Of a stretch of 64,000 nucleotides of DNA, positions 366 to 59,156 are shown in pieces. A program made the position numbers and the translations under genes. Position 1 is the stretch's first letter; the number at the start of each line of letters is the position of its first letter. The notes below the pieces were generated by a model. That model was not told the origin of the DNA. It saw nothing but the letters and a program-made list of their open reading frames with translations, and did not search any database. Source of the stretch: Pachysolen tannophilus NRRL Y-2460 (Eukaryota). Location: NCBI GenBank assembly GCA_001661245.1, contig KV454015.1, positions 413,465-477,464 of the forward strand, given 5' to 3'.

Positions 366-2012
366 ATGGTTTCAGATCCTTTCTTATCAGATCCACTGAG
401 GAAAAGGAAAAAGTCCGTACCGAAAAGAAACACTTCTCTTGTTTCAAGAAAGAAGAGCAAGTCGGCAGCAGCTACGAGCTCAACACTGAATCAAGAAGAT
501 GTGGATGAAGAAATCTCGGGAATTAGTGATAGTGATGAAGAAGAACAAGAACAAATAAATGAAGAAAATGAACAAGATGTATTAAGTAGTGATGATGAAT
601 TTGCTGGAGAATCAGCAGCAGATAAACGTCGTCGTCTTGCAAAACAATATTTGGAGAATTTAGCAAATGAATACCAAGACGAAGGAGAAGAAGGAGGAGC
701 TTTTGATGCACTGGATTTAGATAGAGATATTATTGCATCAAGATTAAAACAAGATGTTGCAGAACAAAAAGGTTATGTTTATAAATTTATTGCTGATAAT
801 TTGTTAATTAAAGATTGTAAACCTAAAATTTCAAGAGTTGGGTCAATGTCACTTACATCATTATCGATCCATTACCCTTATTGTTATACAACTTCAAAAG
901 ATATGGAATTATCTAAATGGGATATTTCAAATGTTAATAAAAAACCAATAAGGAAAAAATATGTTAAAGGTGGATTGAATTTTATAGAAATAAATAAAGA
1001 ACCACATAAAAATGGTCATATGGATGAAATATATTGTTGTTGCGCTTCTCCAAATGGTAAATACGTGGTTACTGGAGGTAAAGATAAAAGATTAATAATA
1101 TGGTCAACTGAAAATTTATCCGTATTAAAAGTTTTAGAAACAAATTCGAAAAAAGGTGAAATCTTTGGATTAATTTTTAAAAGAAATTCTGATCAATTAT
1201 ATGCTGCATGTGGTGATTTAAAAATAAGAACCTATAGTATTAATCAATTTGCTCATTTAGAAACATTATATGGACATCAAGATTTAGTAGTTGATATTAG
1301 CGCATTGGCACAAGAAAGATGTGTTACTGTTGGATCTAGAGATAGAACAGCAATGTTATGGAAAATAGCAGAGGAAACAAGATTAACTTTTAGAGGTGGT
1401 GATTCAGAATCTACTAAAAAAAAGTCTAAAAGGCAACAACAAGATGATTCACAAAAAAATGGTAAAGAAGAATATTTTAATGAAGGATCAATTGATTGTA
1501 TATCAATGATTGACGATTCACATTTTATTACCGGTTCAGATAATGGGAATATTTCCTTATGGTCTACTGCAAAGAAAAGACCACAATTCACACAAAGAAT
1601 TGCTCATGGATTAATTCCTGAAAAAACACCTCTGCAATCTTCTGCAGAATCAAATTTATCATTAGCATCAACACAGATATCAAAACCTCAACCATATTGG
1701 ATAACTTCTGTATATGCGTTACCTTATGCCAATGTTTTTTTTTCTGGTTCATGGAATGGTACTATTAAAATTTGGAAATTGTCCGATGATTTGAGATCAT
1801 TCATATCAATTGGAGAATTACCAAATGCCAAAGGTGTTGTCACTAAAATTGAAGCTATAGAAGATGATTCTGAAAATATCAAGAAATTGAGAGTATTAGC
1901 AACTCTTTCAAAAGAGCATAGATTGGGAAGATGGGTGAAATTACATGGTAATGGTGCAAGAAATGCTTTGTTTTCTGCTGTTATTGAGTATCAAAATTTA
2001 AAACCGAAATAA
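366..2012 (+). CDS. RRP9: U3 snoRNP WD40 protein Rrp9 (U3-55K)
   Basis: Acidic N-terminus with 'ESAADKRRRLAKQYLENL', WD40 repeats ('ETLYGHQD', 'CVTVGSRDRTAMLWKIAEETRLTFRGG') and the C-terminal motif 'KEHRLGRW'. Confidence 0.95.
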   Translation: MVSDPFLSDPLRKRKKSVPKRNTSLVSRKKSKSAAATSSTLNQEDVDEEISGISDSDEEEQEQINEENEQDVLSSDDEFAGESAADKRRRLAKQYLENLANEYQDEGEEGGAFDALDLDRDIIASRLKQDVAEQKGYVYKFIADNLLIKDCKPKISRVGSMSLTSLSIHYPYCYTTSKDMELSKWDISNVNKKPIRKKYVKGGLNFIEINKEPHKNGHMDEIYCCCASPNGKYVVTGGKDKRLIIWSTENLSVLKVLETNSKKGEIFGLIFKRNSDQLYAACGDLKIRTYSINQFAHLETLYGHQDLVVDISALAQERCVTVGSRDRTAMLWKIAEETRLTFRGGDSESTKKKSKRQQQDDSQKNGKEEYFNEGSIDCISMIDDSHFITGSDNGNISLWSTAKKRPQFTQRIAHGLIPEKTPLQSSAESNLSLASTQISKPQPYWITSVYALPYANVFFSGSWNGTIKIWKLSDDLRSFISIGELPNAKGVVTKIEAIEDDSENIKKLRVLATLSKEHRLGRWVKLHGNGARNALFSAVIEYQNLKPK

Positions 2013-2129
2013 GAAAAAAGAAAATAATAATCGGAAGGAATATTTAAAAAAGTTTAACTTTATTTAATTGATTAGTTATATAATTTATATTACTCGTATA
2101 AGTTCATATAAAACAGTATTATATTTAAA

Positions 2130-2689
2130 NNNNNNNNNNNNNNNNNNNNNNNNNNNNNNNNNNNNNNNNNNNNNNNNNNNNNNNNNNNNNNNNNNNNNNN
2201 NNNNNNNNNNNNNNNNNNNNNNNNNNNNNNNNNNNNNNNNNNNNNNNNNNNNNNNNNNNNNNNNNNNNNNNNNNNNNNNNNNNNNNNNNNNNNNNNNNNN
2301 NNNNNNNNNNNNNNNNNNNNNNNNNNNNNNNNNNNNNNNNNNNNNNNNNNNNNNNNNNNNNNNNNNNNNNNNNNNNNNNNNNNNNNNNNNNNNNNNNNNN
2401 NNNNNNNNNNNNNNNNNNNNNNNNNNNNNNNNNNNNNNNNNNNNNNNNNNNNNNNNNNNNNNNNNNNNNNNNNNNNNNNNNNNNNNNNNNNNNNNNNNNN
2501 NNNNNNNNNNNNNNNNNNNNNNNNNNNNNNNNNNNNNNNNNNNNNNNNNNNNNNNNNNNNNNNNNNNNNNNNNNNNNNNNNNNNNNNNNNNNNNNNNNNN
2601 NNNNNNNNNNNNNNNNNNNNNNNNNNNNNNNNNNNNNNNNNNNNNNNNNNNNNNNNNNNNNNNNNNNNNNNNNNNNNNNNNNNNNNNNN
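2130..2689. other. Assembly gap (N run)
   Basis: 560 consecutive N. Confidence 1.
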
Positions 2690-5671: not shown

Positions 5672-8600
5672 CTAATTTCCATGACTAACAGTATTATGTG
5701 AGTTATGAATATAGTTTGCAACAGTCATTAATCGTCTTTGCTCATCATCATCCCAGCTCATATCACCTTTACTGGTCGTTCTCATCAAACCTAAATCATC
5801 TTCGTCACCATATAAATCGTCATCATTATTTTGGTTATCATCACTATCTTCATCTGATAAGGCATCTGTATTATATTCATCTTCTAAGGCAGAAGAACCA
5901 GTTGCACGGTGCCGTGTATTAATCTTCCTATGCTTTTCACCCTCATCTTGAGCTTTCCCACTTTCATTACGTTCAGAATAGGAATCATGAATATCATTAT
6001 ATTCATTATGATTTTCCTGTAACTCAATTGGACTTAGTAAACCATTTGTCGAATATAAAGGATGATTTTTCCTTGCATAACTCCTGCCATCATCGTTCGG
6101 ATCTTCATAATCATCATCATCTCCACCTATTTTGAACAGATCTTGATCAAAATCTGCGGAATTATCGAGATTATCATCATTTATATTATTACCACTATCC
6201 ATATTGAGCTCATTGGGTGGTTGATAATGTACAATACTATTTGGATTATTTGCGTTCGAATTTAATTTTGACGTAAAATCAGTAGACATTGACCAATTCA
6301 CGGGCTCGTCATCTTCGTCATCTTCATCAGAAGAACCGAATTTATCTGGTAAGTCATTAGTCATTTGTTGTGACATGTAACGAGAGAATTGATCATTATC
6401 ATCATCTGAATCAGATGCACCTGTATTTGCATTGTTACCACCACCATTGTGCATGGCATTTAAGTTCTGACTATTATCTAATGAATGGTAATCTTCATCG
6501 TCATCATCATCATCTTGATAGCCACTGCCCCTCAAATCATTATCCACATTTGGGTCCAATATCATACCTTGACTGGTATCTTGTAACTCATCATCTTCTC
6601 CAAGAGTACCACCCAATATAGCATTGTATTTTTTTCTTGTATCTACTAAAGTTTCATTTACATATTGAACCCATTCATCGTTTGAAACAGTATCATGGAT
6701 TATAAACGAAATAGATTCCGGTTGATACAATGATGTAAATTTAACAACCTCTTCCGCTATTAAAGTTAAATGTCCCATATAACCTAATCTCAAACCGGTT
6801 TGTTCTTCATAATCTTCACATTTTTTCTGACCTTCAATAATTAGCTTCGTTATATTGCCTCTTCCAAACAAATCAATAGCCAAATATTTATTATAACCAA
6901 TTTCCATAGAACCATTTAAAATTTGCTGGACAATATCAAAGACAACGTTATGTAAAAAATTGTTCCACGGGAATCTGAAAAACATATTTAATATGGTAAT
7001 TATGACATTATTATCTGCTAAAGCAATTTTTAATTGATCACCAACAACTGTATTCTGCCTCAACATTGCTTCACTCTCATTAGAATGATCAGCTAAATGT
7101 CCTTCATCCATATCAATGCTATAGTCTGCTTCATCAGTTTTTTCACGTACTTGTTGTTCTGGGAGTTCTTCTTGTTCTCCGTGTTCTAAAACTTCATTAA
7201 CTCCCTCTCTTTCTTCTCCTTCGATAGGACTGTGTTGTTCTTGTTCTTGTGTAGCGTCAAATGATTGATCCAGTGGGAGTTGATCATTAACGATATTATC
7301 TGTATTACCATTACGATCAGAAGAAATATCCAAATTATTTATGTCCCTTGAAATATCTTCATCACATACACTATTTTCTGGACTAGTACTAATCTGTTGG
7401 TTAAACTTGAATGCTGTCTTGTCTAAATTTTTTAATCTAGTTCTTTCAATGTCTCTTTCCTTAACTATGGCTTCACCTTTCTCATCGTTAAGTAAACCCA
7501 TATTAGAACAATGCAATAATTCTGCAACCAATTCGCAAATTTTAAATCTTTCAAAACCTAAAGGTTCAATACTACCAAATGGAGTTTCCAATACTTCTGG
7601 ATGAGGTTTCTCTAACATTTTTGTGAAATTTGGAATATTTTCTGCAAAAACTTTTACCAACGTACCTAAGTAAATAGGATCCCTTGAAGTTGGTGGATGC
7701 GATTTAATGGTTATGAATAATACAGGAACAAAATCATAATCTGAATTATTTTTCCTAATAATTTCAATTATTATCCCTACTGCGTTGGCCAACCCAGTCC
7801 CTCCATAAAGCATCAATCTAACCAATTCTCTAATAACAGGTTCTGAAACTAATTCCCTTGTTAATTCATTTGGACCTATTGTATTATCATCATTATTAGA
7901 GTTTGCTGATATGGTTATGAAAGCTTTTAGAAAATCTGCAGAAGCAGACTGTATTGTTGAAGGGTATTCAGGGCCTAAAAATGCTATTAGTGAAGGGATT
8001 AACTTTTGTTCTTGTAAGACATCAATGGCACCAGTAGATGTATCAGGTTTATCACTCACTATAACTTTTAATAATAAATCCATTAAAGTTGGATTATCAA
8101 TGTGCCTCATAAATCTATCAACCAATGACGGTTGGCTTAATATAAATTGAATCATTTCATCTGTCTTTTTAACTAACAAGTAATCATTAATTCTTGTAAA
8201 ATGAGACAGCGATAATATTGACAAGGATGAATCTTTATCCAAAATTGTCCATAACTTCTCCAAAAGTTCTAAATGCTCCATAAACGCTTCTGCTACTGAC
8301 CAGTCCGATTCTTCGATAAGTTGAACGGCAACTTGTGCTCTTCTACAATGAGCTTCAGCAAAAGTTTCTTCACGCTCATCATCATCATCATCATCAATAT
8401 TCATATCACTGTTATAGCTTTCATCGTAAACAGCGGATGCATCACTAGAATCGGATTCAAGATCCGACGAAATCTCACCATTACCTGTATGAGAATCTTC
8501 ATTTTCTGGTGTTTCTTGGTTTTCCTTATCAGCTTTTGTATCATTATCATTAGTTTCATTATCATGCTTTTCATCATCTATAAATGTCACATTAGTAGTA

Positions 8601-9115
8601 GTATTAGTAGTATTATTTGTAGTATTATTATTATTATTAGTAGTAGCAGAAGTAGTAGTAGCATTAGTATTAGCATTAGCATTAGCATTATTATTAGCTA
8701 TATTAGAAGTTGAAGTTGATTGATCATTATCATTGTGTATCTCAACTCCATTCTTAGCTTCTGATTCTTGACCATGATCTTGATTTCCATTTTGCTTTTC
8801 AATTTCAGCTGATTCTTTTTCAAAAATTATTTCTTGTTCTCTTTGAATCTTTGCCTCTAACAGAGTATTTTGTTCTTGTTCCAACTCTTGTTCTTGTTTT
8901 TGATAAATATCATCTTCTACAATTAAATTAATCAATTGATACAAGACATCTGGCTGTCTTAAATATTCTGTTAATTCTGCATTTGAACTTTGAACTTCTT
9001 GTATAATTTCAGGTTCATCCAATAACTCTTCCAACGAAACATCCGGTTTTTCTAATAGTTTCGACACATTAGAATCTGATGGATATGAACTATTTGAAAA
9101 CCTGGGCCAAATCAT
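5672..9115 (-). CDS. SAP190: Sit4-associated protein (SAPS domain; Sap185/Sap190 family)
   Basis: Motifs 'IIIEIIRKNNSDYD', 'IEPLGFERFKICELVAELLHCSNM', 'FPWNNFLHNVVFDIVQQI' and 'RLGYMGHLTLIAEEVVKF'. The first ATG is at 9115 (MIWPRF); the track start at 9211 is TTG. Confidence 0.9.
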   Translation of the reverse strand: MIWPRFSNSSYPSDSNVSKLLEKPDVSLEELLDEPEIIQEVQSSNAELTEYLRQPDVLYQLINLIVEDDIYQKQEQELEQEQNTLLEAKIQREQEIIFEKESAEIEKQNGNQDHGQESEAKNGVEIHNDNDQSTSTSNIANNNANANANTNATTTSATTNNNNNTTNNTTNTTTNVTFIDDEKHDNETNDNDTKADKENQETPENEDSHTGNGEISSDLESDSSDASAVYDESYNSDMNIDDDDDDEREETFAEAHCRRAQVAVQLIEESDWSVAEAFMEHLELLEKLWTILDKDSSLSILSLSHFTRINDYLLVKKTDEMIQFILSQPSLVDRFMRHIDNPTLMDLLLKVIVSDKPDTSTGAIDVLQEQKLIPSLIAFLGPEYPSTIQSASADFLKAFITISANSNNDDNTIGPNELTRELVSEPVIRELVRLMLYGGTGLANAVGIIIEIIRKNNSDYDFVPVLFITIKSHPPTSRDPIYLGTLVKVFAENIPNFTKMLEKPHPEVLETPFGSIEPLGFERFKICELVAELLHCSNMGLLNDEKGEAIVKERDIERTRLKNLDKTAFKFNQQISTSPENSVCDEDISRDINNLDISSDRNGNTDNIVNDQLPLDQSFDATQEQEQHSPIEGEEREGVNEVLEHGEQEELPEQQVREKTDEADYSIDMDEGHLADHSNESEAMLRQNTVVGDQLKIALADNNVIITILNMFFRFPWNNFLHNVVFDIVQQILNGSMEIGYNKYLAIDLFGRGNITKLIIEGQKKCEDYEEQTGLRLGYMGHLTLIAEEVVKFTSLYQPESISFIIHDTVSNDEWVQYVNETLVDTRKKYNAILGGTLGEDDELQDTSQGMILDPNVDNDLRGSGYQDDDDDDEDYHSLDNSQNLNAMHNGGGNNANTGASDSDDDNDQFSRYMSQQMTNDLPDKFGSSDEDDEDDEPVNWSMSTDFTSKLNSNANNPNSIVHYQPPNELNMDSGNNINDDNLDNSADFDQDLFKIGGDDDDYEDPNDDGRSYARKNHPLYSTNGLLSPIELQENHNEYNDIHDSYSERNESGKAQDEGEKHRKINTRHRATGSSALEDEYNTDALSDEDSDDNQNNDDDLYGDEDDLGLMRTTSKGDMSWDDDEQRRLMTVANYIHNSHNTVSHGN

Positions 9116-9910: not shown

Positions 9911-9997
9911 AAAATTTTTGTAACAGCGCTTAGTGTTAACTAATATAATATTATCGAAATGATATGATATCTACAACAAAGAGATATATATCTATCA

Positions 9998-10032
<35 letters not shown>

Positions 10033-29100: not shown

Positions 29101-29914
29101 TCCTCTTTTAAGTTATTCTATTTCGAACTCTAGTGGTAACGATACAGAAGACAAAAGAGTGCAAATGAACAGAAACAATAGATTTCAAGAACAGTCTGCT
29201 GAGGATTTGCATAATAATAACCAACAAGAGTTTGTAGCAACCTCTAATAGATACTCAGCGGGATCGACAACATCCTCATCACCACCAGCTTCACCTAAAG
29301 ACCAGAAAGATTTGCAAATCTCAAAAATTAATTCAGATTCTGGAAGTTTGTCGCAGTCAACATTGAAGGTCGAAAGTAAATCTTATGAAAGACCAAATCA
29401 ACCAATTAAGTATACGGAGTCTGCATTTGGGTTTCCATTACCTCCCCCTTCTCATTCGACTACCGTAATGTTGGATTATAGGTTTCCAATTCACGCTGAA
29501 AGGGCAATTTACAGATTATCTCATTTAAAATTGGCAAACCCTAAGAGGCCGTTGAGACAGCAGGTGTTATTGTCGAATTTCATGTATGCTTATTTAAACT
29601 TGGTTAACCATACATTGTATTTACAGCAAATGAGTGAAAATGGGGATGGCCATAATAATAACAATGATTTAAGCATGAATGGAGAAGATTTTACAGAGGA
29701 AGAGTTAATAAATAATAATCATGATCATGACGATGAAGATGATGAAGAAGAAGAAGATGAATTCATTTTGAACTTTGAAGAGGTTCTTAATGACAATGAA
29801 GCTGGACTCAGCGGTAATGAAGAGGTTGAGCTACCTCTTCAAATTAATGAATCTATAAATAAAGATTCTAGAAACCGCCACGACCAGTCAGTAGAAATTT
29901 ATTACGATGCATAG
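26129..29914 (+). CDS. ZDS1: Zds1/Zds2 family PP2A-Cdc55 regulator
   Basis: Motifs 'ALKRLSIG' and 'LLWVPADAHPEIAP', and Zds_C domain 'FGFPLPP…ERAIYRLSHLKLANPKRPLRQQVLLSNFMYAYLNLVNHTLY'; Q/N-rich linkers. Confidence 0.92.
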   Translation: MSSSSDSNTTTTIATTSAATDEEINIKYENHGSIKRENSGNDRIQQRQQQQQQILQRHLSNQELQAASEAVEQEINAVTALKRLSIGNNLSYDPDLPFGDNEYNSEFNHNQQQQQQQQQQHNNNNSSSSSSINITINNNTTATNNNNNNNNNIWDDVLSSNSSSGRSVRARSTSGGSIGSSIGGNNNKSRRNSLMSLTAITGTSSIVGEYGGGSGSPAEVSLKILTDNEIVDEDTIIDTDKLLWVPADAHPEIAPERFKQHIQKTVHEITEKLQTKNSIRRSSSLMESHNVNDDDDDDLGNEEQKQQDDEQPEQQLSKQCWRNDELKQPSIRDLTKELEKLSEMAGLAATDAVTLARTLSSSSLGYTTIEKEAYDLTPLNKSTSLIFGKSSSIHNYPDKKDDDTPVLSPKSGSQLKRSRWTSYRKNSSLSGSSLKSSHNDITSSSVKTSPILKDENDSGKLDEVSNNTKDLKFKVLNDTKSESHPYQTTKVASTENNRQPLANLQDQQKHQRQSQPQSQPQPQQPQQRPQQFGKLDLSLQNFGYPQQQSQRKPQQRHPPYHQPNQYQRRPSHPSLQIIHQGNNDGSSSLQIQQQQQQHQHQFQQRLRPQGHAKNHQKYPSSLSASQGPLQQHQRSHHHQQHKLMTGNTSRKVSPLQQQHQMFQSQGPSQQRPHSGSPRLSQSLNFSGPYPQQLSPRPLSQRSPKIDSQLQLASTLQKQHMQRSPPPPPSPLPLPLEEQQKQKQILGQSKINNFSFFQQGKSNSSTQQLQISPKVNSDFSTEVQDTSGLTQEENESTIPNKKKSYGELSTDTTTTSGSDKKPSAAKKGWNWFKERSSDKQLLSRSLTDPYSNNVLLQKDDPLLSRSFSDPKILSSVSTVASASSSGSSTPNHSRNRHGSVSINELDTTKETQQAEPVKEKENKNLITNFFKKKTHKSDKQVSSASNKSSSLDKKRQPRTPSPPLSDLQQQQQNFGLPEPTQQPTPPDTTDNNPLLSYSISNSSGNDTEDKRVQMNRNNRFQEQSAEDLHNNNQQEFVATSNRYSAGSTTSSSPPASPKDQKDLQISKINSDSGSLSQSTLKVESKSYERPNQPIKYTESAFGFPLPPPSHSTTVMLDYRFPIHAERAIYRLSHLKLANPKRPLRQQVLLSNFMYAYLNLVNHTLYLQQMSENGDGHNNNNDLSMNGEDFTEEELINNNHDHDDEDDEEEEDEFILNFEEVLNDNEAGLSGNEEVELPLQINESINKDSRNRHDQSVEIYYDA

Positions 29915-33529: not shown

Positions 33530-34477
33530 ATGGTATGTTTGTGCTATGATGATTGATGTTGGAAGTTGGAAATATTATTTTATTTTTTTTTGTTTTTTAA
33601 AATTTCCAATTGATAGAAAGTTTGATTAATGATTAAATGAATTATTTTATATGATTTAAATTTACTAACATGATGTTGCCACCGTTATCTTTCTTACCAA
33701 TTTTTATAGACTTCAATTGGTACAGGTTATGATCTTTCCAATAGTATTTTTTCTCCAGATGGAAGAAATTTCCAAGTGGAGTATGCTACTAAAGCAGTTG
33801 AGAATGGAGGAACTTCAATTGGTATTAAATGTAAAGATGGTATTGTATTAGCTGTTGAAAAAGTTGTTAATTCCAAATTACTTGTACCTGGGAAAAATAA
33901 AAAAATTCAAACGATTGATAGACATGTTGGTGTATGTTATTCTGGTTTAATACCTGATGGAAGACATTTGGTGAATCGTGGTAGAGATGAGGCTCAATCT
34001 TACAAATCATTGTATAAAGAACCAATTTTAGTTCCATCATTAATAGATAGATTAGGTATTTATGTTCAGAACTACACTTGCTATAACTCTGTTAGACCGT
34101 TTGGAGTTTCTGCAATTGTGGGCGGTATCGATGATAACGGTCCACATCTTTACATGATTGAACCAAGTGGTGTATATTGGGGGTATAATGGTGCCGCCAC
34201 TGGGAAGGGAAGACAAGCAGCAAAGTCTGAATTGGAAAAATTGGACTTGCCAAATTTAACCACAAGAGAGGCAGTAAAAGAAGCAGCAAAGATTATATAT
34301 CTGGCTCATGAATCAAACAAAGACAAAGATTTCGAATTAGAAATTAGTTGGATCAATTATGAAGATACTAAAGGTAGACACGAGTCTATTCCTGAAGAAT
34401 TATTAAAAGAAGCTATTGAATATGCTGCCGCTCAAAGCGATGAAGAAGAAAGCAGTGACGAAGAAATGGAAGAATAG
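33530..34477 (+). CDS. PRE10: 20S proteasome alpha-7 subunit; exon 1 is the ATG only (33530-33532), exon 2 is 33710-34477 (256 aa)
   Basis: The spliced N-terminus M|TSIGTGYDLSNSIFSPDGRNFQVEYA is the canonical alpha7 start; also 'GKGRQAAKSELEKL' and 'KDFELEISW'. Confidence 0.96.
33533..33709 (+). other. Spliceosomal intron of PRE10 (177 nt), directly after the start codon
   Basis: GTATGT donor, TACTAAC at 33663-33669, TAG acceptor ending at 33709. Confidence 0.95.
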
Positions 34478-38289: not shown

Positions 38290-40530
38290 ATGCCAGTTGA
38301 AGAAGAACAAGAGATTCGTATTGATGAATCGGCTATACCGATTGATGATATTGATTTTTCTGATTTAGAGGCCAAATATGCTATACCTGAAGATGATTCT
38401 TTAAGTCATTTTATTATTGTTGATGGTGCACCAATTGCTCCGGAATCAAAAGTTGCTGTTTTAAAGAAAGTATTGACAAAAGTTTTTTCTCTGGCTGGTA
38501 AAGTTACTGATATGTATATGCCAGTTGAAAATGGACAAACAAAAGGTTTTGTATTTGTTGAATTTGAAGATATTTCATCTGTTGATATTGCTTGTAAGAA
38601 ATTAAATAATAAAAAATTAGATGTTAAACATACTTTATTTGTTAATAAACTTTCTGATGTTGAAAAATATGGTGTTAAAGGACATGTTTCAGATGAATTT
38701 GTTGAACCAAAAATTGAACCATATCATGAAAGTCCATATTTAAAAAGTTGGTTACAAGATTATAATGGAAGAGATCAATTTGTATTACAAAAAGGTGATG
38801 AAGTTGGTGTATATTGGTCCAAAAATAAAAATGATCCAGAACCTGCTGTTGAACCAAGACAAAATTGGACTCAAGCTTTTGTTAGATTTTCTCCAAAAGG
38901 TTCATATTTATTTTCAATGCATGAACAAGGTATTCAAGCATGGGGAGGACCAGAATTTTCAAGATTAAAAAGATTTTTCCATCCAAATGCAAGATTAATA
39001 GATTTTTCACCATGTGAAAACTATTTGGTTTCACTTTCTCCAACTCCAATTGAAGTTCCAGCTGAAGATCATCCAGCTAGACTGTCTTTTCCATTTGGTC
39101 CAGAAAGTGAAGGTCATAAATTAATTATATGGGATATTAAATCAGGTTTACCAACTAGAACTTTTGCATTACCTCCAAATTTGGAAAATGAAAAAAAAAT
39201 GGTTTGGCCTTTAGTTAAATGGTCTTATGATGATAAATATTGTGCTAGAATGGGTCCAGATGCTTTAGCAGTTTATGAAACTTCTGATTTCCAACTTTTA
39301 GATAAAAAATTGATTAAAATTGAAGGAATTGTAGATTTTGAATGGGCACCAGCAGGTGTTAAATTGGCTGCATCTAAAAATAAAGATGCTGATCAACATG
39401 TTTTAACATATTGGACTCCAGAACAAGTTAATCAAACAGCAAGAGTTGCATTGATGCAAATTCCATCTAGAGAAGTTATTAGAACTGTTAATTTATTTCA
39501 AGTTTCTGATTGTAAATTACATTGGCAAGATGAAGCAAGATTTTTATGTGTTAAAGTTGATAGACATACAAAATCTAAAAAAACAATTTTTACAAGTTTA
39601 GAATTTTTCCATCTTTTTGAAAAAGATATTCCTGTTGAAAAATTAGAATTAAAAGATAGTGTTATAAATTTTTCTTGGGAACCAAAAGGTGAAAGATTTG
39701 TTACAATTAGTATCTTGGATGTTGGTGGTAATGTTAATCCTGCAATTGCAAGAAATACATTAACATTTTTTGGTCCAGAAGAAGAAAAAATTAAAAATAA
39801 AACAAAATTAAATATTAAAAAATGGACTGCATTTGCTTCATTTGAGAAAAAACATTCAAATACAATTGAATTTTCACCAAAGGGAAGATTTGTTGCTGTA
39901 GCTACTATTATAGGAAATAATCATGGTGAAATTGAATTTTATGATTTGGATTATGATGGAACTAATAAGGAATCTTCAACAGTTAATAATACTGGTAGTG
40001 GTAATAATAGTGTTAATAATAGTAATGTTAAAATCTCTGCAAACTTGAAACAAATTGGTTTCCAAGAATATTTTGCTTTAACAGATATAGCATGGGATCC
40101 ATCGGGACGTTACTTGGCCGCATGGTCTTCATCATGGCGTCATAAGATTGAAAATGGTTATAGACTTTATGACTTTGCTGGACACTTATTAAGAGAAGAA
40201 GTAATTGATCAATTCAAAACATTCTATTGGAGACCAAGACCACAAAGTTTATTAAGTTCAAATGACCGTAAGAAAGTTAGAAAGAATTTAAGAGAATACT
40301 CTGCACAATTCGAAGAAGCTGATGCAATGGAAGCTGATGTTGCCACAAGAGAATTAATCTTGAAAAGAAGAAAACTCTTTGAAGATTGGAACAGCTGGAG
40401 ATCGGAAATCGAAAAAATACAAAAAGACTTGGGACTCACCCAAGAAGAGGAAACTGAAGATGTCAACGAAGAAGTTGTTGAAGAGATTAGAGAAGAAGTC
40501 TTGGAAGAAAAAGAAGAAGTTGTTGAGTAA
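38290..40530 (+). CDS. PRT1: Translation initiation factor eIF3 subunit b
   Basis: Motif '[10 protein letters not shown]', RRM with 'TKGFVFVEF', beta-propeller, 'WDPSGRY' and '[10 protein letters not shown]…[11 protein letters not shown]'. Confidence 0.96.
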
Positions 40531-42986: not shown

Positions 42987-44957
42987 ATGATGACATCAAA
43001 GATAGCTGCAATATTGAATGAACAAGATATGTTGTCATCACCCACGAGGTTGTCGCAAAATCAAGATGATACGGAATCTTATTTGTATTTATCTTCAAGA
43101 GAACCAACAATGACCAATTTTTCTTCAAATTCAATAACTGAGACATCGCTTGAAAAAATTAGTAATTTGCTTGAAAATGCTAGGAAATTAGGGAATCAAA
43201 AGAATTTACAAGGTTTAAATAATCTGGAAAATTTGCCAAAAAATGGGTCTTCTTTTAATTTTAAAAAAAATAATAATAATATTAATATTATTAACAGTAG
43301 TAGTGGTGGTGGTAGTGGTGATGATACACCAAGTGTTAAGAAAAAATTATATGAAAGGGAAAGATTTAATTTTAAACCCTCGTTACTTTTACAAAAACAT
43401 TTTAAATCATCACCATTATCTCAATCAACACCTATAATATCAGATACTGTGGATGTATTGAATAATAAGAATAATGATTCCTCACAAGAAATTAAAAGCA
43501 AAACACCACCATTGGACAATATTGAAGAAGAATTTAAATCTTGCGATAATTCAAAAATGAAAGAAGTTTTCGAAAAAGCTAAAGAAACAGCAAATGGAAT
43601 TACAAAGACTAACATTGTTTCTGATGTAGAAGAAAATTCAATATCATCTGATAATGCAGTTAAAAGATTTTTAAAAGATTTTGCATTATTAAATGATGAA
43701 GAACGTGAAAAAGTTCAAAAAAATATATTTTCTCTTTTAGGAACGGAAATAAAACAAAATCACAAACAATCACAATCACAATCACAATCACAGTCACAGT
43801 CACAGTCTGCTAAGATAGTTCAAAATAGTAAAGCAGCTGCTGACCTTACGGGGTATCTTTCTCCAGAAACAACACCACCAACTTCTAATGATCAAGAAAG
43901 GGGAGGGAAACTTGATATAGAACAAAGTAAAACACATATATCCCGTAATGAAGATGATGAACTTGATAAATTGAAAACTTTTATTGTAACTGTAAATGGT
44001 GGTTCAGATATTTTAAAGCAATTTTATGATAATCAAGAAAAAGCAAATGGAAAATCTAAGGTCCAGCAACATCAACAACAACATCAGAATCAAAAGTTTT
44101 CACTGCCACTGCCACTGCCACTGCAACTGTCCCTTCTGATATCAGCAGATGATATCTCTAATACATCTACACCGAAACAGTCGTTTAACCCAGGAATAAA
44201 TTCATTTGTGACTCCCTCTAAAAACAAGATAAGACTTGAATCATCTTCTTCAATATTCGAAAATGACGAGAAACCCAATGAAATAAAAGACACTGAAATT
44301 TTAAAAGAAGCTCTCAGGAGAGCTGAAATTGAACTTGAAGAAAAAAATTTATATATTAATAGTTTGGAAGAACAAATTCAAGATTTGAGTTTGAAATTAG
44401 AAGAGAATGGTCATTTAAGGCAACAATTATTTGAAAAAGATAGAAAATACGCACATTTTGAAGAAGAAGTAAAATCAACTGAGCAGAATTTGAAGCTGAA
44501 GTTAGAAAGTTTAAATAACTTTATTAATTTGACAATTGGAGGTGATTCTCTGGCTATTGATGCAGACTTTTTGCAGTCAAATGGATTCGGAAAAATATAT
44601 TTTGAGTTACAAATGGATGAAATTGATAAATTGACATTAGTTGAGTTACAGAACAAGTTGAAAGAATTATTATTGGTATTATTCATACCGTATGATAGAC
44701 TTTCAATAGCATTGAATAATATAACTAGATTTTTCAGAAATGATTATATAAGATTAATAAGTTTTATCAAAAGATTACATGATATAATTTATAGAAACAA
44801 TGGTTCAGGCGTGAAATTACCCAATGTTTACAAATTTAGTTGTTTTGATGGTGAATTTGATTCTGATAATGATTATTTACAAGACGAAGTGCTGAATTTT
44901 CAAAATTGTCTAGATGAGATGTTAAAGAATGTTAGGCATTTAAAAGATGCTACTTGA
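42987..44957 (+). CDS. Uncharacterised protein with low-complexity N-terminal half, coiled coil and helical C-terminal domain
   Basis: 656-codon ORF with heptads 'ILKEALRRAEIELEEKNLYINSLEEQIQDLSLKLEE'. I recognise no family. Confidence 0.8.
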   Translation: MMTSKIAAILNEQDMLSSPTRLSQNQDDTESYLYLSSREPTMTNFSSNSITETSLEKISNLLENARKLGNQKNLQGLNNLENLPKNGSSFNFKKNNNNINIINSSSGGGSGDDTPSVKKKLYERERFNFKPSLLLQKHFKSSPLSQSTPIISDTVDVLNNKNNDSSQEIKSKTPPLDNIEEEFKSCDNSKMKEVFEKAKETANGITKTNIVSDVEENSISSDNAVKRFLKDFALLNDEEREKVQKNIFSLLGTEIKQNHKQSQSQSQSQSQSQSAKIVQNSKAAADLTGYLSPETTPPTSNDQERGGKLDIEQSKTHISRNEDDELDKLKTFIVTVNGGSDILKQFYDNQEKANGKSKVQQHQQQHQNQKFSLPLPLPLQLSLLISADDISNTSTPKQSFNPGINSFVTPSKNKIRLESSSSIFENDEKPNEIKDTEILKEALRRAEIELEEKNLYINSLEEQIQDLSLKLEENGHLRQQLFEKDRKYAHFEEEVKSTEQNLKLKLESLNNFINLTIGGDSLAIDADFLQSNGFGKIYFELQMDEIDKLTLVELQNKLKELLLVLFIPYDRLSIALNNITRFFRNDYIRLISFIKRLHDIIYRNNGSGVKLPNVYKFSCFDGEFDSDNDYLQDEVLNFQNCLDEMLKNVRHLKDAT

Positions 44958-48896: not shown

Positions 48897-48930
<34 letters not shown>

Positions 48931-49340: not shown

Positions 49341-51587
49341 CTATAACTTTCCAGTGATAGTTTTGATTCTATCAACCTCTGCTTGTAGAGCTTTTAAATT
49401 ACCTAATATATCACTGGAATTTGAATTAGAGTTTTGAATTGCTGGAGTTGAATGTACGCTATTAACATGCCCGTTTTGGAAGTAGTCGTCAAATCCAAAC
49501 GCTTGTTGTTGTGGTGGTTGTAGGGGTTGTGGTGGTGACTGTAATTGCCGGCCATTAATATCATAATTTTGGTCCGTAATCAGAATTTTTGGAGGTAAAC
49601 TAGGAGCGGAGTTAGGCGGAGAGACGGGTTTCCTAGAGGACCGCGATGGGGGTGGCGGTGGGGGCGGCCGCTGCTGTGGCAAAGTACTTGATCTAGCCCT
49701 AGGTGGAGGCAGTGGTGGAGCAACAGGATGAATTGGATGGGAATGCTGATGATGGAGAGAAGGAAACAGTAACGGTGGTGATAATAATGGAGGTGGGGAT
49801 ACGGCTCCATTTAATACAGTACTACTAACATTTCCAAAATAATTATTTTGTAAATTTTGAGGGCTAGCATCTTCATATGCTAATGGTGATGAAACCGACC
49901 TATCTCTTCTGCTTACTGGAGGTTGTGGGGATAAATGTTTTGACTCTCTCATGGATTTCGAGACACTTCCTGTCAAATTTGGTTGTAATAACAGTGGCAG
50001 CAGGGGTAAAGGTTGAGCCGTTGTTGTAGCATCAGATCCCGTAATATCTGGAGATAACACAGACGCAATATACTGGTTACTACTACTACTGCCGTTGTTG
50101 TTGTTGCTGTTGCTGTTGTTGAATGGAAAAGATTGTTGTTGTTGTTGCTGCTGCTGCTGTTGCTGATAGAGCGGAGGAGAAGAAGGAGGGAGTGGATTCG
50201 GATTAATATTACCTATATCAGTGTTGTGATATGCATATGATGGAACACCATGTACAGACATACTATCAATTTTAACATTACGGAAATGGTTTATGGAATC
50301 TTGCATATCTTTCAATTCCTCTTCTTCATTTTCTACTTCTTCATTTGATTTGAAAGTACTACCTCTATTAGGTGGAACTCTACCTAATAACTGTTCCATA
50401 GGCAATGAAAAATCCAAATCTTCTTTTTGAACTTGATTTTCTAATGCAGGATTTATTTCTGGTTGAACAATAACTTGATCTGAAAATTTCACTTTTTTCT
50501 TTGTAAATTTTTTCTTCTTAGATGAAGAATGATTTTTCTCTTTCCCAAATTGCAAACTAGATGCTGGTGAATTAGGACGTTGACCTGTCAACATAAATTG
50601 GGCAAAATTGTCCAAATCTAATTTTGATTCAGAAGACATCATCATTACTGATCCATTGTTTTTGCTTAATGTTTCCCCTGCGATCCTTGCTCCTTTTATT
50701 CCAATTTTTTCCAAACCCCCATTAATATTGTCATTAGAGTCGTTATATTCATCATTAGTATCATCATCTTCAATATCACTATCTTCCGATTGTCGTTTCC
50801 TCGATAATATAGAAACAGGCCTTGGCACCGCGGAATTTATTTTGATTAAATGCCTCGAAGGAATTTTACCATCAACTATTGAATGAGAAATTAATCTAAG
50901 TAAACAAAAGAACTGACCGATATTTAAAGAATATTGACATTGTACAAAAATTTTTTTCAAAATTTTTTTAATTTGATCTGATAATTTAAAATTATTTAAA
51001 AAATTGAATACATCATCAATTTTAATCGTTCTTGTTCCTCTTCTTGTTATAATATCATTATACCACCTTAAATAAGTCTTTGCCTCTGTTGCAGATAGTT
51101 GTTCAATGGTTAATGATAAAGGAATTGAAGGATCATCTTTAAAATTTTTTACCAATTCTTCATCTTCTTTTTGTTTTTTCAATTTTAATTCCTGTTCCGA
51201 AATTTGTACTTGATTTAACTTGTTATCTTGATTTACATCAAGTGGTTCCTTCCTTTCCGATGAACTTAATCCATTACTTTTATTTAATTCAACAGCACCA
51301 CCATTATTTCCATTGTTTCTTACATCACTAAATAAATTTTTAAAATCAATTTGCGATATATTTTCTCCTACTCCACTATTATTATCGTTAATATTATTAC
51401 CAACATCACCATTATTTTTTAAAATTTGAATACCATCATTATCACTTTTGGGTAAATTTATCGAACTCGAAGATGAATTAAGACCAAATGAAACAGGTGG
51501 TGGAGCCGGGGAATTACTAGTACCATTGGGATTTTGTGAGTCAGATATACCAGGGATATTCAACCAATCAAACCCTGACTGGGACAT
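49341..51587 (-). CDS. SCD5: PP1 (Glc7)-targeting endocytic protein Scd5
   Basis: N-terminal 'FDWLNIPG', 'PLSLTIEQLSATEAKTYLRWY', RVxF-type 'KKVKFSD' and 'DFSLPMEQLL'. Adjacent to MIP1, as in S. cerevisiae. Confidence 0.85.
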   Translation of the reverse strand: MSQSGFDWLNIPGISDSQNPNGTSNSPAPPPVSFGLNSSSSSINLPKSDNDGIQILKNNGDVGNNINDNNSGVGENISQIDFKNLFSDVRNNGNNGGAVELNKSNGLSSSERKEPLDVNQDNKLNQVQISEQELKLKKQKEDEELVKNFKDDPSIPLSLTIEQLSATEAKTYLRWYNDIITRRGTRTIKIDDVFNFLNNFKLSDQIKKILKKIFVQCQYSLNIGQFFCLLRLISHSIVDGKIPSRHLIKINSAVPRPVSILSRKRQSEDSDIEDDDTNDEYNDSNDNINGGLEKIGIKGARIAGETLSKNNGSVMMMSSESKLDLDNFAQFMLTGQRPNSPASSLQFGKEKNHSSSKKKKFTKKKVKFSDQVIVQPEINPALENQVQKEDLDFSLPMEQLLGRVPPNRGSTFKSNEEVENEEEELKDMQDSINHFRNVKIDSMSVHGVPSYAYHNTDIGNINPNPLPPSSPPLYQQQQQQQQQQQSFPFNNSNSNNNNGSSSSNQYIASVLSPDITGSDATTTAQPLPLLPLLLQPNLTGSVSKSMRESKHLSPQPPVSRRDRSVSSPLAYEDASPQNLQNNYFGNVSSTVLNGAVSPPPLLSPPLLFPSLHHQHSHPIHPVAPPLPPPRARSSTLPQQRPPPPPPPSRSSRKPVSPPNSAPSLPPKILITDQNYDINGRQLQSPPQPLQPPQQQAFGFDDYFQNGHVNSVHSTPAIQNSNSNSSDILGNLKALQAEVDRIKTITGKL

Positions 51588-51944: not shown

Positions 51945-54900
51945 TCAAAAGGCTACTTCCTCAGTCAAGTCTTCTTCTTTAGAGAAATATTCCAGCTCAA
52001 AGATTTTCCTTTGCAGGTCATCTTGTGATGCTAATACAGCTTTTTTCAAATCTTTTCTAACATTTTTAAATTCTTCATCTGTTTTAACAATTTGTAATTT
52101 AATGAATAGTTCCTTTGATGCTCTATTACTAAATTCCACGTCGTCCAAGTTTTTAATGATTGGTTTCCTCTTATCATAGTTAATATATGTCAAATCCAAG
52201 TCTTTGACTGTATCTTCGAAAAATTTTTTCATACCTGGAATTTCTAATAATGACTTTATATCTAACGATTGTCCATGTGCTATTGCAATTGGATTACTTG
52301 GTGTGATACAATCTAAGTTGACTTCTTTTCTTAAAACTTTATCGATATCAACAGCAGAAAAAAAAGCGCATGACTGTGGTACTTCATTAATACCTAATTG
52401 TTGACAAAACATTGCTCTTGTCCATAAATTGCTAATTTGTAAAATTATTGCAGCTTTAAATTTATCCTCTTCTTTAACAAGATACCTTATTTCATCATGA
52501 ATTGTTATACTCAATCTTGCATCAACATTATAAAGAGATGACAAATAGTCCATGGAAATGATGAGCAAATGTAAATAATCAACACCTGAAGATTGAATAG
52601 CCCAATTTATTCTAGAAGGTAAGAATGAATTTGCCTTCAAGTTTTTCTTTGTTAGGGCCGAAGTGATACCTGCTCCTAATACAGGGGTCTTTGGAGCATC
52701 TTGTTCAGCAAGTTTTTCTAATCTATTAAAAACAATAGATTCTGAACCACCATACCAGATTTTCCCATGAGAATATATTCCAGTTTTACCCTTTGTTGCA
52801 GAATATAAATTTCTTGCAATCTCCGTTGCTTTTTCATTCGGTAAAGTTGGATTAAATTTCTTCAATAATGTAGTGGCAAATTTTAAACCAGCACCATATA
52901 TTCTACCATAATTGAAAACTTTAGCTTCATTTCTAGATATACCTAATATATTAGCAGTTTTAGAATGTAAATCTGTACCTTCATTTTTAGTACCTTCCAA
53001 TGTCATCCAACCAATAGCTGAACCTCCATGGATTTGGAAAACAGAATCCCCAATTAAACTTGCTATCCATAATTCTTCACTATCAACATCCGCCCCGACA
53101 AAGCAATAACCTGCAGGTGCTTTAATCATGGATTTTAATTCGGAACCCAATCTAGTCTTTTTCGCATTAGACGCAGTTAACCATGTATTTTCTACTGAAC
53201 GTCTAGTTATTGTACCCATTGTTACGACATTTGGTAATATTATACCAATCTTTTCTTTTAATCCAAAGTCTGCAACTGGTTCTTTACCATTGTTATCGTA
53301 ATTATGAACAACAAATTGGTTGATAATTCTTTCTCTTGCACTTGTCCAATAACTCGAAGATACAACTAATTGTAAGGCATCTTTGGCCAAATCGTAATCT
53401 GAAGTTAATACACCTTTCTCAAAAAAAGCTAAAGAGGATTTAGTCATAACACTAAAAGTTCTAGACAGAGCACCATCACTATGAGGAACTTTAAAAATAC
53501 ATTTTTCTTTATAATAATTAGATGGAATTTGTTCCCAATTAGGGTCTTCATACAATTTTTCATTAGAAATATGTGTAAAATTTTGTGATAAATAATGATC
53601 TTTTTTCTCAATTGGTGCAACAAAGCACCACCCATAAGTGTCGAGCCAAAACAAAGGATATTTATCCCATGAAAGTCTTAATAATAAAGGTGCAATTCTT
53701 GTTCTAGTGGTAAGCTTTAATTCATTTTTCACAATCAATTTCTTGTACCATTCTGGATAACCGGGCAATTTTTGATTCTTATAAGGGACTCCCTTCTTGG
53801 TATATTTAACTGGCAGGATTGTCCAATCTAATTGTGATAACCAAGGATCATCTTCCCAAGGCTTTTTCGCATTAGGATTTTTAAGATCTATTTTATCCTT
53901 TAATTTAACTACTTCATTTGCCAAACGATGTAAATTTTTTTCAATTTTTAATTTTGTTTCAACGTATAATTTTTCAGTATTTTCAATATATCTAGCCCAT
54001 GATTCATTTGTCGGTAAAAAACTTTGAGCAATATGTCTTAATGCTGCAAAGCTGACTGGATGAGGAACAATTTTACGAAATGCAGGAAAAACTTTACTGA
54101 AAACTTTAAAAGTTGCATAAACATCATTAGCACAATAATCCATTAATTTTTGGAAATTATCTATTATTACTTGTTTATCTTCAGAGGAAAAATAATCTCG
54201 AACAGCTTTGTCCATTGTTATACCACAATAAAAATCTGCAACATTTGCTAATGAGTTTAAACTACTAACTTTCATCCATGGATCTTCTTGTAATGCAGTT
54301 TCATCAGAATTTTCCAAATCTAAAACTGGATTATTTATCAATTCTTGTAAATCACTATTCTCTATATCTGATCTAATTTTATCCAATGATAATTCATCTT
54401 CATCGGTCTCATCTTCTTCTAATTTTTTGGCTTTATTTTTCTTATATTTCATCCAAGTTGGTCTTTGCCTTGAACACATCCCAGATACAGCAACATGCAA
54501 AGACATAGTATCCAAGAAAAATGCCTTTGATTGTTTCAAATTGTATTCATCTTTTATTCTAGCTCTATCATAGGAAACATTATGACCTACAATTAATTTC
54601 TCAGTTTCAAAGTTATTCATTGGAATCAAATGTTCAACTTTATCACTTTCACCTGTAAGGTAAGGTGAAACCCAAGAATACCATGCTTTTGTAGAAACAC
54701 ATGTTGCTAAAGTTGGGAAATTAGATATCTTATATAAGACTTCAACATCGAAAACCATATTATCCTCCAAAGGATAAGGTACAGGTTCTGGTTCATTTTT
54801 TGGTGAGAGATATCTATACCAACCTGATTTGAAAACCCATTTTTTAGGTTTCTTTGGTAAACTTGAACCAATTTTAATCAAATTTTCTGCCAATTGTAAA

Positions 54901-55235
54901 TATTTATCACTTTTCAAAACACCCAACTTATAAAAATGTTCATCTAATGTTTGTCCATGTAATTTTGGAATTTTAAAATCAATAGGTTCAGTTATAAAAG
55001 TTTTTTTACCTAATAATCCATTTTTTTTTAAATGTAATTTTGCTAAATTTATTACTGTACTATCCTTTCTTTTCCTCACCGGCAGCTTATACAAAGGAAA
55101 GACTTGTCGTTGTAAACCTTCAGATAAGTATTGAATACCAACTTGGTTAATTCGTGGCTCCTCATTAAATTTAGAAGAATTAAACCTTTTAAACACAATG
55201 GTTCTCCTAGTACAAACAGCATTATATTTTAACAT
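51945..55235 (-). CDS. MIP1: Mitochondrial DNA polymerase gamma
   Basis: Exo motifs 'VFDVE', 'GHNVSYDRARI', 'YCANDV'; Pol motifs 'VGADVDSEELWIA', 'RNEAKVFNYGRIYGAG', 'IHDEIRY'. The first ATG is at 55235. Confidence 0.97.
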   Translation of the reverse strand: MLKYNAVCTRRTIVFKRFNSSKFNEEPRINQVGIQYLSEGLQRQVFPLYKLPVRKRKDSTVINLAKLHLKKNGLLGKKTFITEPIDFKIPKLHGQTLDEHFYKLGVLKSDKYLQLAENLIKIGSSLPKKPKKWVFKSGWYRYLSPKNEPEPVPYPLEDNMVFDVEVLYKISNFPTLATCVSTKAWYSWVSPYLTGESDKVEHLIPMNNFETEKLIVGHNVSYDRARIKDEYNLKQSKAFFLDTMSLHVAVSGMCSRQRPTWMKYKKNKAKKLEEDETDEDELSLDKIRSDIENSDLQELINNPVLDLENSDETALQEDPWMKVSSLNSLANVADFYCGITMDKAVRDYFSSEDKQVIIDNFQKLMDYCANDVYATFKVFSKVFPAFRKIVPHPVSFAALRHIAQSFLPTNESWARYIENTEKLYVETKLKIEKNLHRLANEVVKLKDKIDLKNPNAKKPWEDDPWLSQLDWTILPVKYTKKGVPYKNQKLPGYPEWYKKLIVKNELKLTTRTRIAPLLLRLSWDKYPLFWLDTYGWCFVAPIEKKDHYLSQNFTHISNEKLYEDPNWEQIPSNYYKEKCIFKVPHSDGALSRTFSVMTKSSLAFFEKGVLTSDYDLAKDALQLVVSSSYWTSARERIINQFVVHNYDNNGKEPVADFGLKEKIGIILPNVVTMGTITRRSVENTWLTASNAKKTRLGSELKSMIKAPAGYCFVGADVDSEELWIASLIGDSVFQIHGGSAIGWMTLEGTKNEGTDLHSKTANILGISRNEAKVFNYGRIYGAGLKFATTLLKKFNPTLPNEKATEIARNLYSATKGKTGIYSHGKIWYGGSESIVFNRLEKLAEQDAPKTPVLGAGITSALTKKNLKANSFLPSRINWAIQSSGVDYLHLLIISMDYLSSLYNVDARLSITIHDEIRYLVKEEDKFKAAIILQISNLWTRAMFCQQLGINEVPQSCAFFSAVDIDKVLRKEVNLDCITPSNPIAIAHGQSLDIKSLLEIPGMKKFFEDTVKDLDLTYINYDKRKPIIKNLDDVEFSNRASKELFIKLQIVKTDEEFKNVRKDLKKAVLASQDDLQRKIFELEYFSKEEDLTEEVAF

Positions 55236-56938: not shown

Positions 56939-57440
56939 ATTAGATTGATTTTAATTTTCCATTCTTTCTTTTTCATAAAGTTGTTCTCTTATAAAAAAAT
57001 CATTGAAGAACCCCTTTTCTTTTTTTTGTTTTGTTTTTTGTTTGTTTTATTCGAAATATAGTTTTCAATTAGTCCATTAAATTACCACCTTTTTATCTAT
57101 CTAGTAACCTCTCTTATAATCGATTGACCTTCTGGTAAAAAATTGATAAAATGAAAAACAGGTAGTGCATTAGTGTGATATAAAAGTTTTACCTAAAATG
57201 ACAAAAGGCCTTTCACAGGGCAAGATAGATTGATTAATAGATAGTTGTATCTTTTATCTTCTTGATTATTTTATATTGTATATAAGAGATTGTGTGAAGA
57301 AGTCTGATGAACTAGTTATAAAGAAGAATATAAATGATATAGATTTGGAGTTGTTGTTGTTGTTGTAGTTGTAGTTGTTTTTTTTTTTGGTAACCTATAA
57401 GAGGAAGGAAGAAAAGATTGTTCAGTAGACATAAAGCAGT

Positions 57441-59156
57441 ATGAATATAAATAAAATAGGTTCAAGGTATCGATGTATATATCGATCTACTAGAATATCA
57501 AGGATGTTCACTATAAACCAGCCAGTTTTATCAAGAATAACTGGTTTTAGATCGATAATTACCGAAGCAAATAATAAAAAGTATGATATACTCAAATTTT
57601 CATCATCATTTTTAAATTTAAGATATAGATCAACAGTTTCTACAATTGACAGCAAGGTTAAAGAAAATATTGAAAATAAGAATAATAATACTTTTGTAAT
57701 AGATACAGACTCACTGGATTCATTAGATGAAGCTCAAACTGGGTTATTTAAAATTTTAAAACCAATCACTCCAAATGATGCATACGTCAGTTGTACTATA
57801 TTTGATATTAATGGTAACGTTGTAGCTGTTTCAAAAAAATTCCCCAAAATGCAATTTTTATCAGAAAATGGACTTTACCCTCGTGATTTAAGGAAAATTG
57901 ATAGTTCAACTATTGATATTATACCGACAATAGCTGTAAGAAAAAATTGTATATTAGTTAATTTACTACATATAAAGGCAATTGTAAAATCAAACACAGT
58001 TATGATTTTTGATACTTCAACACCTTCAAGTGCTACCAAGTTAAGTTTATTTATGTATGATTTGGAATCAAAATTGAAAATTACACCTGCAGGATCTAAT
58101 AATAAATTGTTGGCAAATCCTTCACAACAATATTATTATGAATTTAAAGCTATTGAAAGTATATTGATTAACGTAATGACATGTCTTGAAACTGAATTAC
58201 AACTTCACTTGAATGTGTGTGGAACAATATTGGAAGAATTGGAAGATCAAATAGATAGAGATAAATTGAGAGAATTATTAATTAAATCAAAAGCATTAAC
58301 AACTTTTTATCAAAAGGCATTATTAATAAGAAATGTCTTGGATGAATTATTGGAAAATGATGAAGATTTGGGAGGAATGTATTTAACTGAAAATATGAAA
58401 AGAGAAAAACAATCAGTGCAAAATTTATCATCTGCTTCATCCACTGAGACCACTGGAAAAGATGATCCAGAAAATCCTACTGATAGAACTGATTTTGCAG
58501 AAATTGAGATGTTATTAGAAGCATATTATAAACAATGTGACGAATTCGTACAACAAGCTGAAACTTTGATAAATGATATAAAATCTACTGAGGAAATTGT
58601 TAATATCATATTAGATGCAAATAGAAACTCCTTAATGTTGTTTGAAATAAAAGTCACTATTTATACTTTAGGATTTACTGTGGCCACCGCTTTACCTGCA
58701 TTTTATGGAATGAATTTGAAAAATTACGTTGAAAATTCCAATTTTGGGTTTGGTCTGGTAATTTTTTGTTCTATTATAATGGCATTATGTGTTACTTTTT
58801 TAAATTTCTCCAAGTTAAGGTCTGTTCAAAGAATAACTATGATGTTGTCAAACTCTCTGGATACTAAAGTTGCAAGTAATGCGTCGAAGGCAGCTGCAGC
58901 TGCAGAGGCTACTAGAAAAGATGTTGAAGCACTGATGAACATTCAAAAATTAAATTTACACAATTATAGTGGGTTAAATCATAGTGTGAACGGTAGCTCA
59001 AATAACTCATTGGTGCATGAAGAAAGAAAAAAATTGAATGTCGCAATTAGCAGGTTTAGAAAATTTATAAGAAGAAATAAAAATGATACGGTTGATCCTA
59101 AGCAAAGGGATATGATCTGGAAATGGTTAGTTGATGAACAGAAAAATCAAAAATGA
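57441..59156 (+). CDS. MRS2: Mitochondrial inner-membrane Mg2+ channel (CorA family)
   Basis: Motifs 'GLYPRDLRKID', 'EMLLEAYY' and 'ILDANRNSLM', plus the YGMN signature and two TM helices. Syntenic with VMA4. Confidence 0.92.
   Translation: MNINKIGSRYRCIYRSTRISRMFTINQPVLSRITGFRSIITEANNKKYDILKFSSSFLNLRYRSTVSTIDSKVKENIENKNNNTFVIDTDSLDSLDEAQTGLFKILKPITPNDAYVSCTIFDINGNVVAVSKKFPKMQFLSENGLYPRDLRKIDSSTIDIIPTIAVRKNCILVNLLHIKAIVKSNTVMIFDTSTPSSATKLSLFMYDLESKLKITPAGSNNKLLANPSQQYYYEFKAIESILINVMTCLETELQLHLNVCGTILEELEDQIDRDKLRELLIKSKALTTFYQKALLIRNVLDELLENDEDLGGMYLTENMKREKQSVQNLSSASSTETTGKDDPENPTDRTDFAEIEMLLEAYYKQCDEFVQQAETLINDIKSTEEIVNIILDANRNSLMLFEIKVTIYTLGFTVATALPAFYGMNLKNYVENSNFGFGLVIFCSIIMALCVTFLNFSKLRSVQRITMMLSNSLDTKVASNASKAAAAAEATRKDVEALMNIQKLNLHNYSGLNHSVNGSSNNSLVHEERKKLNVAISRFRKFIRRNKNDTVDPKQRDMIWKWLVDEQKNQK

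Follow-up and report, generated by a model that had tools for sequence, protein, structure and literature searches.

The window analyzed here is a stretch of 64,000 nucleotides from contig KV454015.1 of the yeast Pachysolen tannophilus NRRL Y-2460 (assembly GCA_001661245.1, positions 413,465 to 477,464 of the forward strand), and our subject is the meaning of the codon CTG (CUG in the message) in its protein-coding genes. The stretch has a G+C content of 28% and holds 25 open reading frames (ORFs) of at least 150 amino acids. Their Pfam families are those of a budding-yeast nuclear set, with an RRP9-like WD40 protein, SAPS, RasGEF, TYW3, Zds_C, an Rce1-like protein and a Miro GTPase, joined by eIF3b, BolA, DNA polymerase gamma, V-ATPase E, MRS2 and others. 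The genes on which the analysis draws are collected in Table 1. An earlier reading of the letters alone (the sequence-only reading) had proposed that CTG encodes alanine here. Our results support this proposal: leucine is excluded from the window itself, while alanine is supported through relatives, the position of the window in a tree and public records. We therefore regard the window as very probably nuclear DNA of a CUG-Ala budding yeast (order Alaninales: Pachysolen, Nakazawaea, Peterozyma), with CUG read as alanine.

Table 1. Genes of the window discussed in the text, with their in-frame CTG codons (positions are those of the window).
Feature	Position	Strand	CTG codons
RRP9 orthologue	366..2012	+	396, 486, 711, 1632 = residues 11, 41, 116, 423
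SAP190-like SAPS protein	5672..9115	-	8863, 8209, 7273, 6139 = residues 85, 303, 615, 993
ZDS-like protein	26129..29914	+	18, none inside Zds_C (residues 1110-1160)
GEM1 (Miro GTPase) orthologue	31391..33313	-	32929, 31615
PRE10 (proteasome alpha-7), second exon	33716..34477	+	one, 34301
PRT1 (eIF3b) orthologue	38290..40530	+	38491, 39082
SID-domain protein	42987..44957	+	10, six within the low-complexity tract 44103-44138
SCD5-like proline-rich protein (no Pfam match; name from the sequence-only reading)	49341..51587	-	6, including 50003, 50000, 49994
MIP1 (mitochondrial DNA polymerase gamma)	51945..55235	-	55085, 53816, 53468, 52016, 51995
MRS2 orthologue	57441..59156	+	57714, 58755, 58857, 58932

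CTG was described by the sequence-only reading as sparse and absent from the conserved Zds_C and polymerase cores, and both statements hold. The codon accounts for 82 of the 15,626 codons in the ORFs (5.25 per 1000) and occurs in 19 of the 25 (76%; mean 3.3 per ORF), the PRE10 exon bringing the total to 83 positions. The individual codons that the reading had cited are all in frame (RRP9 711, SAP190 8209, MRS2 58755, PRT1 38491 and 39082, MIP1 53816, BOL3 41435 and PRE10 34301), as are those of two tracts it had singled out (44103-44138 and 50003-49994). Only four of the 82 fall within Pfam domain stretches, none of them in the Zds_C or MIP1 stretches, against 440 of 1257 TTA/TTG codons (35%; Fisher p=3e-10); for comparison, the fractions are 59/226 for CTT/CTC/CTA, 216/688 for alanine codons and 304/1521 for serine codons. 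Within the CTN box, CTG has a share of 26.6%, two to six times that of the G-ending codon in any of the other seven four-fold boxes (4.5-13.1%), and it is commoner (82) than CTA (41) and CTC (26). Both figures run opposite to what AT pressure would do to a synonymous leucine codon.

Alignment columns reveal directly how these codons depart from leucine. Homologue sets came from deep searches for MIP1, SAP190 and RRP9 (120 matches listed for each) and from a representative search for MRS2 (150 matches); residues encoded by CTG were written as X, and column profiles were built without the self match and the closest relatives (P0001, P0002, P0121, P0241, P0242 and P0361). The tally covers the 17 CTG codons of these four families, the remaining 65 lying in other proteins. 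Eleven of the 17 stand in columns at least 60% occupied and were usable; the other six are in gapped columns. Summed over the 11 sites, the log-odds were +3.9 bits for serine, +0.7 for lysine, -1.1 for threonine, -2.0 for alanine and -15.9 for leucine. When 11 true leucine sites were drawn at random 20,000 times from the same alignments, no draw gave a leucine score this low, whether TTA/TTG or CTT/CTC/CTA sites were used. The mean leucine log-odds per site was -1.45 for CTG, +1.92 for TTA/TTG and +1.31 for CTT/CTC/CTA, and since the latter three score as leucine, the departure is specific to CTG. Contrary to expectation under the standard code, CTG does not fall at conserved-leucine positions as the other leucine codons do. 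Leucine decoding of CTG is thus rejected from the window itself, and the translations supplied with it, which read CTG as leucine, are wrong, as the sequence-only reading had held. Its proposed preference for alanine is another matter at this level, as the tally of the 11 sites excludes leucine but does not separate alanine from serine.

We favor alanine over serine because close relatives carry leucine at invariant alanine columns, because of the position of the window in the MIP1 tree, and because public records of its genes use translation table 26. Among the matches listed, the nearest were P0002 for MIP1 (67% identity), P0121 for SAP190 (61%), and P0241 and P0242 for RRP9 (70%). P0121 has leucine at three SAP190 columns where the other sequences have A119/119, A115/V4 and A95/S13/C8, and P0241 and P0242 have it at two RRP9 columns otherwise occupied by A118/118 and A67/S26/T23; at these five columns the window has a GCN codon four times and TCT once. 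Judged from the protein sequences, these odd leucines would be CTG codons translated with the standard code. Other sequences of the large public protein collection carry leucine at serine-dominated columns instead, e.g., P0162 at six columns, so that the method distinguishes the two reassignments. A stricter screen, restricted to columns with at least 90% alanine, also found isolated leucines in five other MIP1 sequences, and the relatives' alanine signal is consequently clean only in SAP190 and RRP9. We note that the window carries serine (TCT) at column 874 of the SAP190 alignment, a position held by alanine in 115 of the 119 other SAPS proteins and by leucine in the closest relative; exchange between alanine and serine at conserved small-residue columns therefore occurs in this lineage.

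The MIP1 tree was built from 23 rows, i.e., the window and 22 of the 119 non-self matches. It joins the window to P0002 with a Shimodaira-Hasegawa-like approximate likelihood ratio (SH-aLRT) support of 97, and places the pair, with support 100, as sister to eight named Pichiaceae (Kuraishia, Komagataella, Ogataea, C. arabinofermentans, C. boidinii, Ambrosiozyma, Brettanomyces and Pichia). The window is outside the Ser1, Ser2 and Leu1 clades and does not join Candida, Scheffersomyces, Spathaspora, Babjeviella or Saccharomycopsis, the last of these grouping with Phaffomycetaceae and Saccharomycetaceae. Similarly, the RRP9 tree joins the window with P0241 and P0242 (support 98), while the SAP190 tree did not resolve its placement. 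A split of the Ala clade (Pachysolen, Nakazawaea, Peterozyma) from the Leu2 clade is described by Krassowski et al. (PMC5951914). The window branches at this published position, which supports the alanine reading, and together with the relatives' alanine columns and the table-26 records the tree makes the clade assignment of the sequence-only reading, a genome of the Ala clade, look right.

Exact look-ups in NCBI/UniRef returned table-26 translations, letter for letter, for three of the eight genes tried (MIP1, GEM1 and the SCD5-like gene), and neither table 1 products (0/7 genes) nor table 12 products (0/2 genes). The public MIP1 copy, P0001, has no mismatch to the table-26 translation, from which five residues differ under tables 1 and 12. 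The table-26 translation of GEM1 is identical to P0511 (NCBI/UniRef) and that of the SCD5-like gene to P0512 (NCBI/UniRef/MetaClust), and the standard-code version of neither was found. SAP190, the kinase, RRP9, MRS2 and PRT1 had no exact public match under any code tried, presumably owing to differences in gene models. A public match of this kind is annotation and not experiment, though it does show that the organism has been filed as CUG-Ala.

This change of code, published in 2016, is the defining trait of the order Alaninales and has been applied in public records of the window genes; our analysis adds nothing new about the genetic code itself. Krassowski et al. cite a second paper, also of 2016, that reportedly describes the reassignment in Pachysolen. 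In Mühlhausen et al. 2016 (PMC4937558), liquid chromatography-tandem mass spectrometry of Pachysolen gives alanine at 97.2% of 907 fully supported CUG positions, the tRNA(CAG) has a G3:U70 pair and A73, and 16,824 CUG codons are counted in 5,288 proteins, with CUG in 80% of genes. Groenewald et al. 2023 (PMC11182611) give CUG-Ala as diagnostic of Alaninales. In the Alaninales lineage CUG is read as alanine by a tRNA-Ala with anticodon CAG (NCBI table 26); for the window we infer both this tRNA and alanine, rather than serine, at its CTG codons.

Compared with the known codes, the window resembles CUG-Ala in that its CTG is non-leucine, sparse and kept from conserved positions, that its lineage is sister to the Leu2 Pichiaceae and that public records of its genes use table 26. 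It also matches Pachysolen in the proportion of genes with CTG (76% against 80%) and in CTG per gene (3.3 against 3.2). We found no differing feature, but the few informative sites of the window alone do not prefer alanine to serine. The CUG-Ser1 code (table 12; Candida, Debaryomycetaceae, Metschnikowiaceae) likewise takes CTG from leucine and depletes it at conserved positions, and some window CTG codons stand on serine columns (RRP9 residue 11). However, the window branches elsewhere, and its nearest relatives have leucine at alanine rather than serine columns. The CUG-Ser2 clade (Ascoidea and Saccharomycopsis, with stochastic serine or leucine in Ascoidea asiatica) has similarly few CTG codons, off conserved positions, but Saccharomycopsis lies away from the window in the MIP1 tree. 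This tree thus places the window in neither Serinales nor Ascoideales. With regard to conserved serine, the window offers one clear serine column (RRP9 residue 11) and one shared by alanine and serine (SAP190 residue 303), while MRS2 residue 439 and RRP9 residue 116 fit serine poorly. For the CUG-Ser2 clade, alignment-based calls are described as ambiguous where conserved CTG sites are few (PMC5951914).

Several results nonetheless weigh against alanine, and the window by itself does not separate it from serine. Over the 11 sites serine outscores alanine, and the difference of +5.8 bits lies between that of 11 typical alanine sites (-12.1, sd (standard deviation) 4.8) and that of 11 typical serine sites (+19.1, sd 4.2). 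The CTG at RRP9 396 (residue 11), which the sequence-only reading had missed, occupies a serine-dominated column (S88/K9/N6/T4/A2 of 116); the closest relative and each of the five named Pichiaceae examined have serine there. PRE10 34301 stands opposite leucine in S. cerevisiae in the five PDB alignments shown, all of them to S. cerevisiae chains; the sequence-only reading had set this site aside as compatible with leucine, valine or alanine. In addition, ARAGORN found no tRNA gene within the 64 kb, hence no tRNA(CAG); no named Ala-clade species was among the matches listed in any search, so that none is in the trees; and the CTG origin of the relatives' odd leucines is deduced from protein sequences.

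The closest relatives also speak against alanine when their residues are read opposite the CTG codons of the window. At the 12 CTG sites that could be aligned in this way, the closest relative has S three times, L three times, E twice, and N, F, D and G once each, but never A. The three sites where leucine in the relative meets CTG in the window are RRP9-116, MIP1-474 and MIP1-1081. When these are left out, the relative comparison favors serine by 8-12 bits. If instead the three leucines are shared CTG codons, the alanine reading scores about the same as a mixed one in which the window inserts serine and its relatives alanine, according to hand arithmetic on the relative-comparison tables. P0121 (SAP190) and P0242 (RRP9) are both listed with a longest contig of 56,472 bases, and the two genes are probably neighbors in that relative, as they are in the window (366-9115). 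A metagenome scan with RRP9 for the relatives' DNA returned only three distant WD40 loci at 21-23% identity and was not used.

Most of the homologue residues given by the sequence-only reading proved right when the single columns were inspected, among them leucine opposite PRE10 34301. The reading had placed SAP190 8209 opposite alanine in the SAPS motif, and the column at residue 303 agrees (A67/S49/T3 of 119), with no leucine and with alanine in all five named Pichiaceae examined; residues 85, 615 and 993 are in gapped columns. It had read MRS2 58755 as a poor place for serine, and the column at residue 439 indeed holds S only six times and A 23 times among 123 residues (G30/A23/L20/V19/I13/T7/S6). 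Its claim of alanine or glycine opposite RRP9 711 survives in part, as both are present at residue 116 (A6, G3) in a column that is mainly K57/Q37/R14, with L2 and no serine; RRP9 residue 423 lies in a mixed polar column. MIP1 53816 (residue 474) was correctly said to face lysine in S. cerevisiae, and lysine is found in 77 of 119 sequences. PRT1 38491 (residue 68) faces polar residues as claimed, lysine in S. cerevisiae and threonine in the third distinct chain, 4nox, of the PDB alignments, in which PRT1 residue 265 and GEM1-129 fall in gaps; GEM1-567 faces proline in human and leucine in Drosophila Miro. CTG tends to stand at variable, polar positions where serine outscores alanine whatever the truth, and we therefore treat the serine lean as weak, with real signal at only about three CTG sites.

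The surroundings of CTG are unusual as well. Within five residues of a CTG codon there are 0.95 proline and 0.88 glutamine per site, whereas around most other tallied residues these values are 0.31-0.53, and values as high are seen only for proline around proline (0.95) and glutamine around glutamine (1.33). Hydrophobic neighbors are fewer (2.46 against 2.7-3.3). The neighborhood is rich in serine, proline and glutamine and poor in alanine (0.33 per site, against 0.86 around true alanine), which again counts against an alanine codon. We rejected neighbor composition as a discriminator between the two residues, as CTG codons that arose by mutation from CCG and CAG would be expected to show the enrichment of proline and glutamine whichever of the two they now encode. 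The ZDS-like ORF (26129-29914, + strand) alone contributes 18 of the 82 CTG codons, many of them immediately preceding glutamine codons in Q-rich tracts, which fits a change of CAG to CTG as their origin.

The strongest rival to alanine is that CTG encodes serine despite the kinship with CUG-Ala yeasts, through a separate capture by a tRNA-Ser(CAG) or a mixed alanine/serine reading. We consider it improbable, even though serine tops the 11-site log-odds, the RRP9-11 column is a serine column, the closest relative has serine at three of 12 CTG sites and never alanine, and the surroundings are serine-rich and alanine-poor. The MIP1 tree places the window outside both CUG-Ser clades, with Saccharomycopsis, Babjeviella and Candida/Scheffersomyces elsewhere, and the sister relatives bear an alanine signature at invariant alanine columns while having three leucine/CTG positions in common with the window. 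Serine is moreover rare at MRS2-439 and absent from RRP9-116, the public annotation follows table 26, and serine would outscore alanine at variable polar positions regardless, real signal being confined to about three sites. A related proposal, that a yeast of the CUG-Ala lineage inserts serine at CUG wholly or partly, by means of a second tRNA(CAG) or dual reading, seems to us less probable still. If true, it would explain both the serine lean of the informative CTG sites and that of the closest relatives' residues.

Lower again we place ambiguous decoding, in which two tRNAs compete for CUG (reported in Ascoidea asiatica) and the sites tolerate both residues. The CTG columns are indeed a mixture of polar, small and hydrophobic ones, and near absence from conserved positions is expected of an uncertain codon. 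However, a clean reassignment predicts the same depletion, the Pachysolen peptides are almost uniformly alanine at CUG (PMC4937558), and the window holds nothing on tRNA content. That CTG is simply a rare leucine codon of an AT-rich genome has next to no chance of being correct: the S. cerevisiae leucine opposite PRE10 34301 and the tolerance of MRS2-439 for leucine are outweighed by the leucine sum over the 11 sites, a SAP190-303 column free of leucine, a box share opposite to AT pressure and the failure to find any standard-code product on public record.

With alanine as the preferred meaning, reading CTG as leucine puts a wrong residue at 83 positions of this window, and table 26 is consequently needed for translation, database search and structure prediction with this genome. 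Collection proteins of CUG-reassigned yeasts similarly show leucine at invariant alanine or serine columns, as expected from standard-code translation, and their users inherit the errors. The collection proteins with leucine at conserved serine or alanine columns are P0162, P0095, P0301, P0341, P0257, P0121, P0241 and P0242.

The window also contains runs of N at 2130-2689, 9753-9910, 41775-42257 and 42623, 1,202 bases together. The ORFs at 2125-2709 (- strand) and 41742-42278 (+ strand) have no Pfam match because they are nearly all blanked by these runs. Finally, the PRE10 frame at 33716-34477 (+ strand) is open from about 33713 and has no ATG at its start, and the conserved N-terminus (IGTGYDLSNS...) begins straight after a stop-free junction; a short first exon followed by an intron therefore probably precedes this frame.

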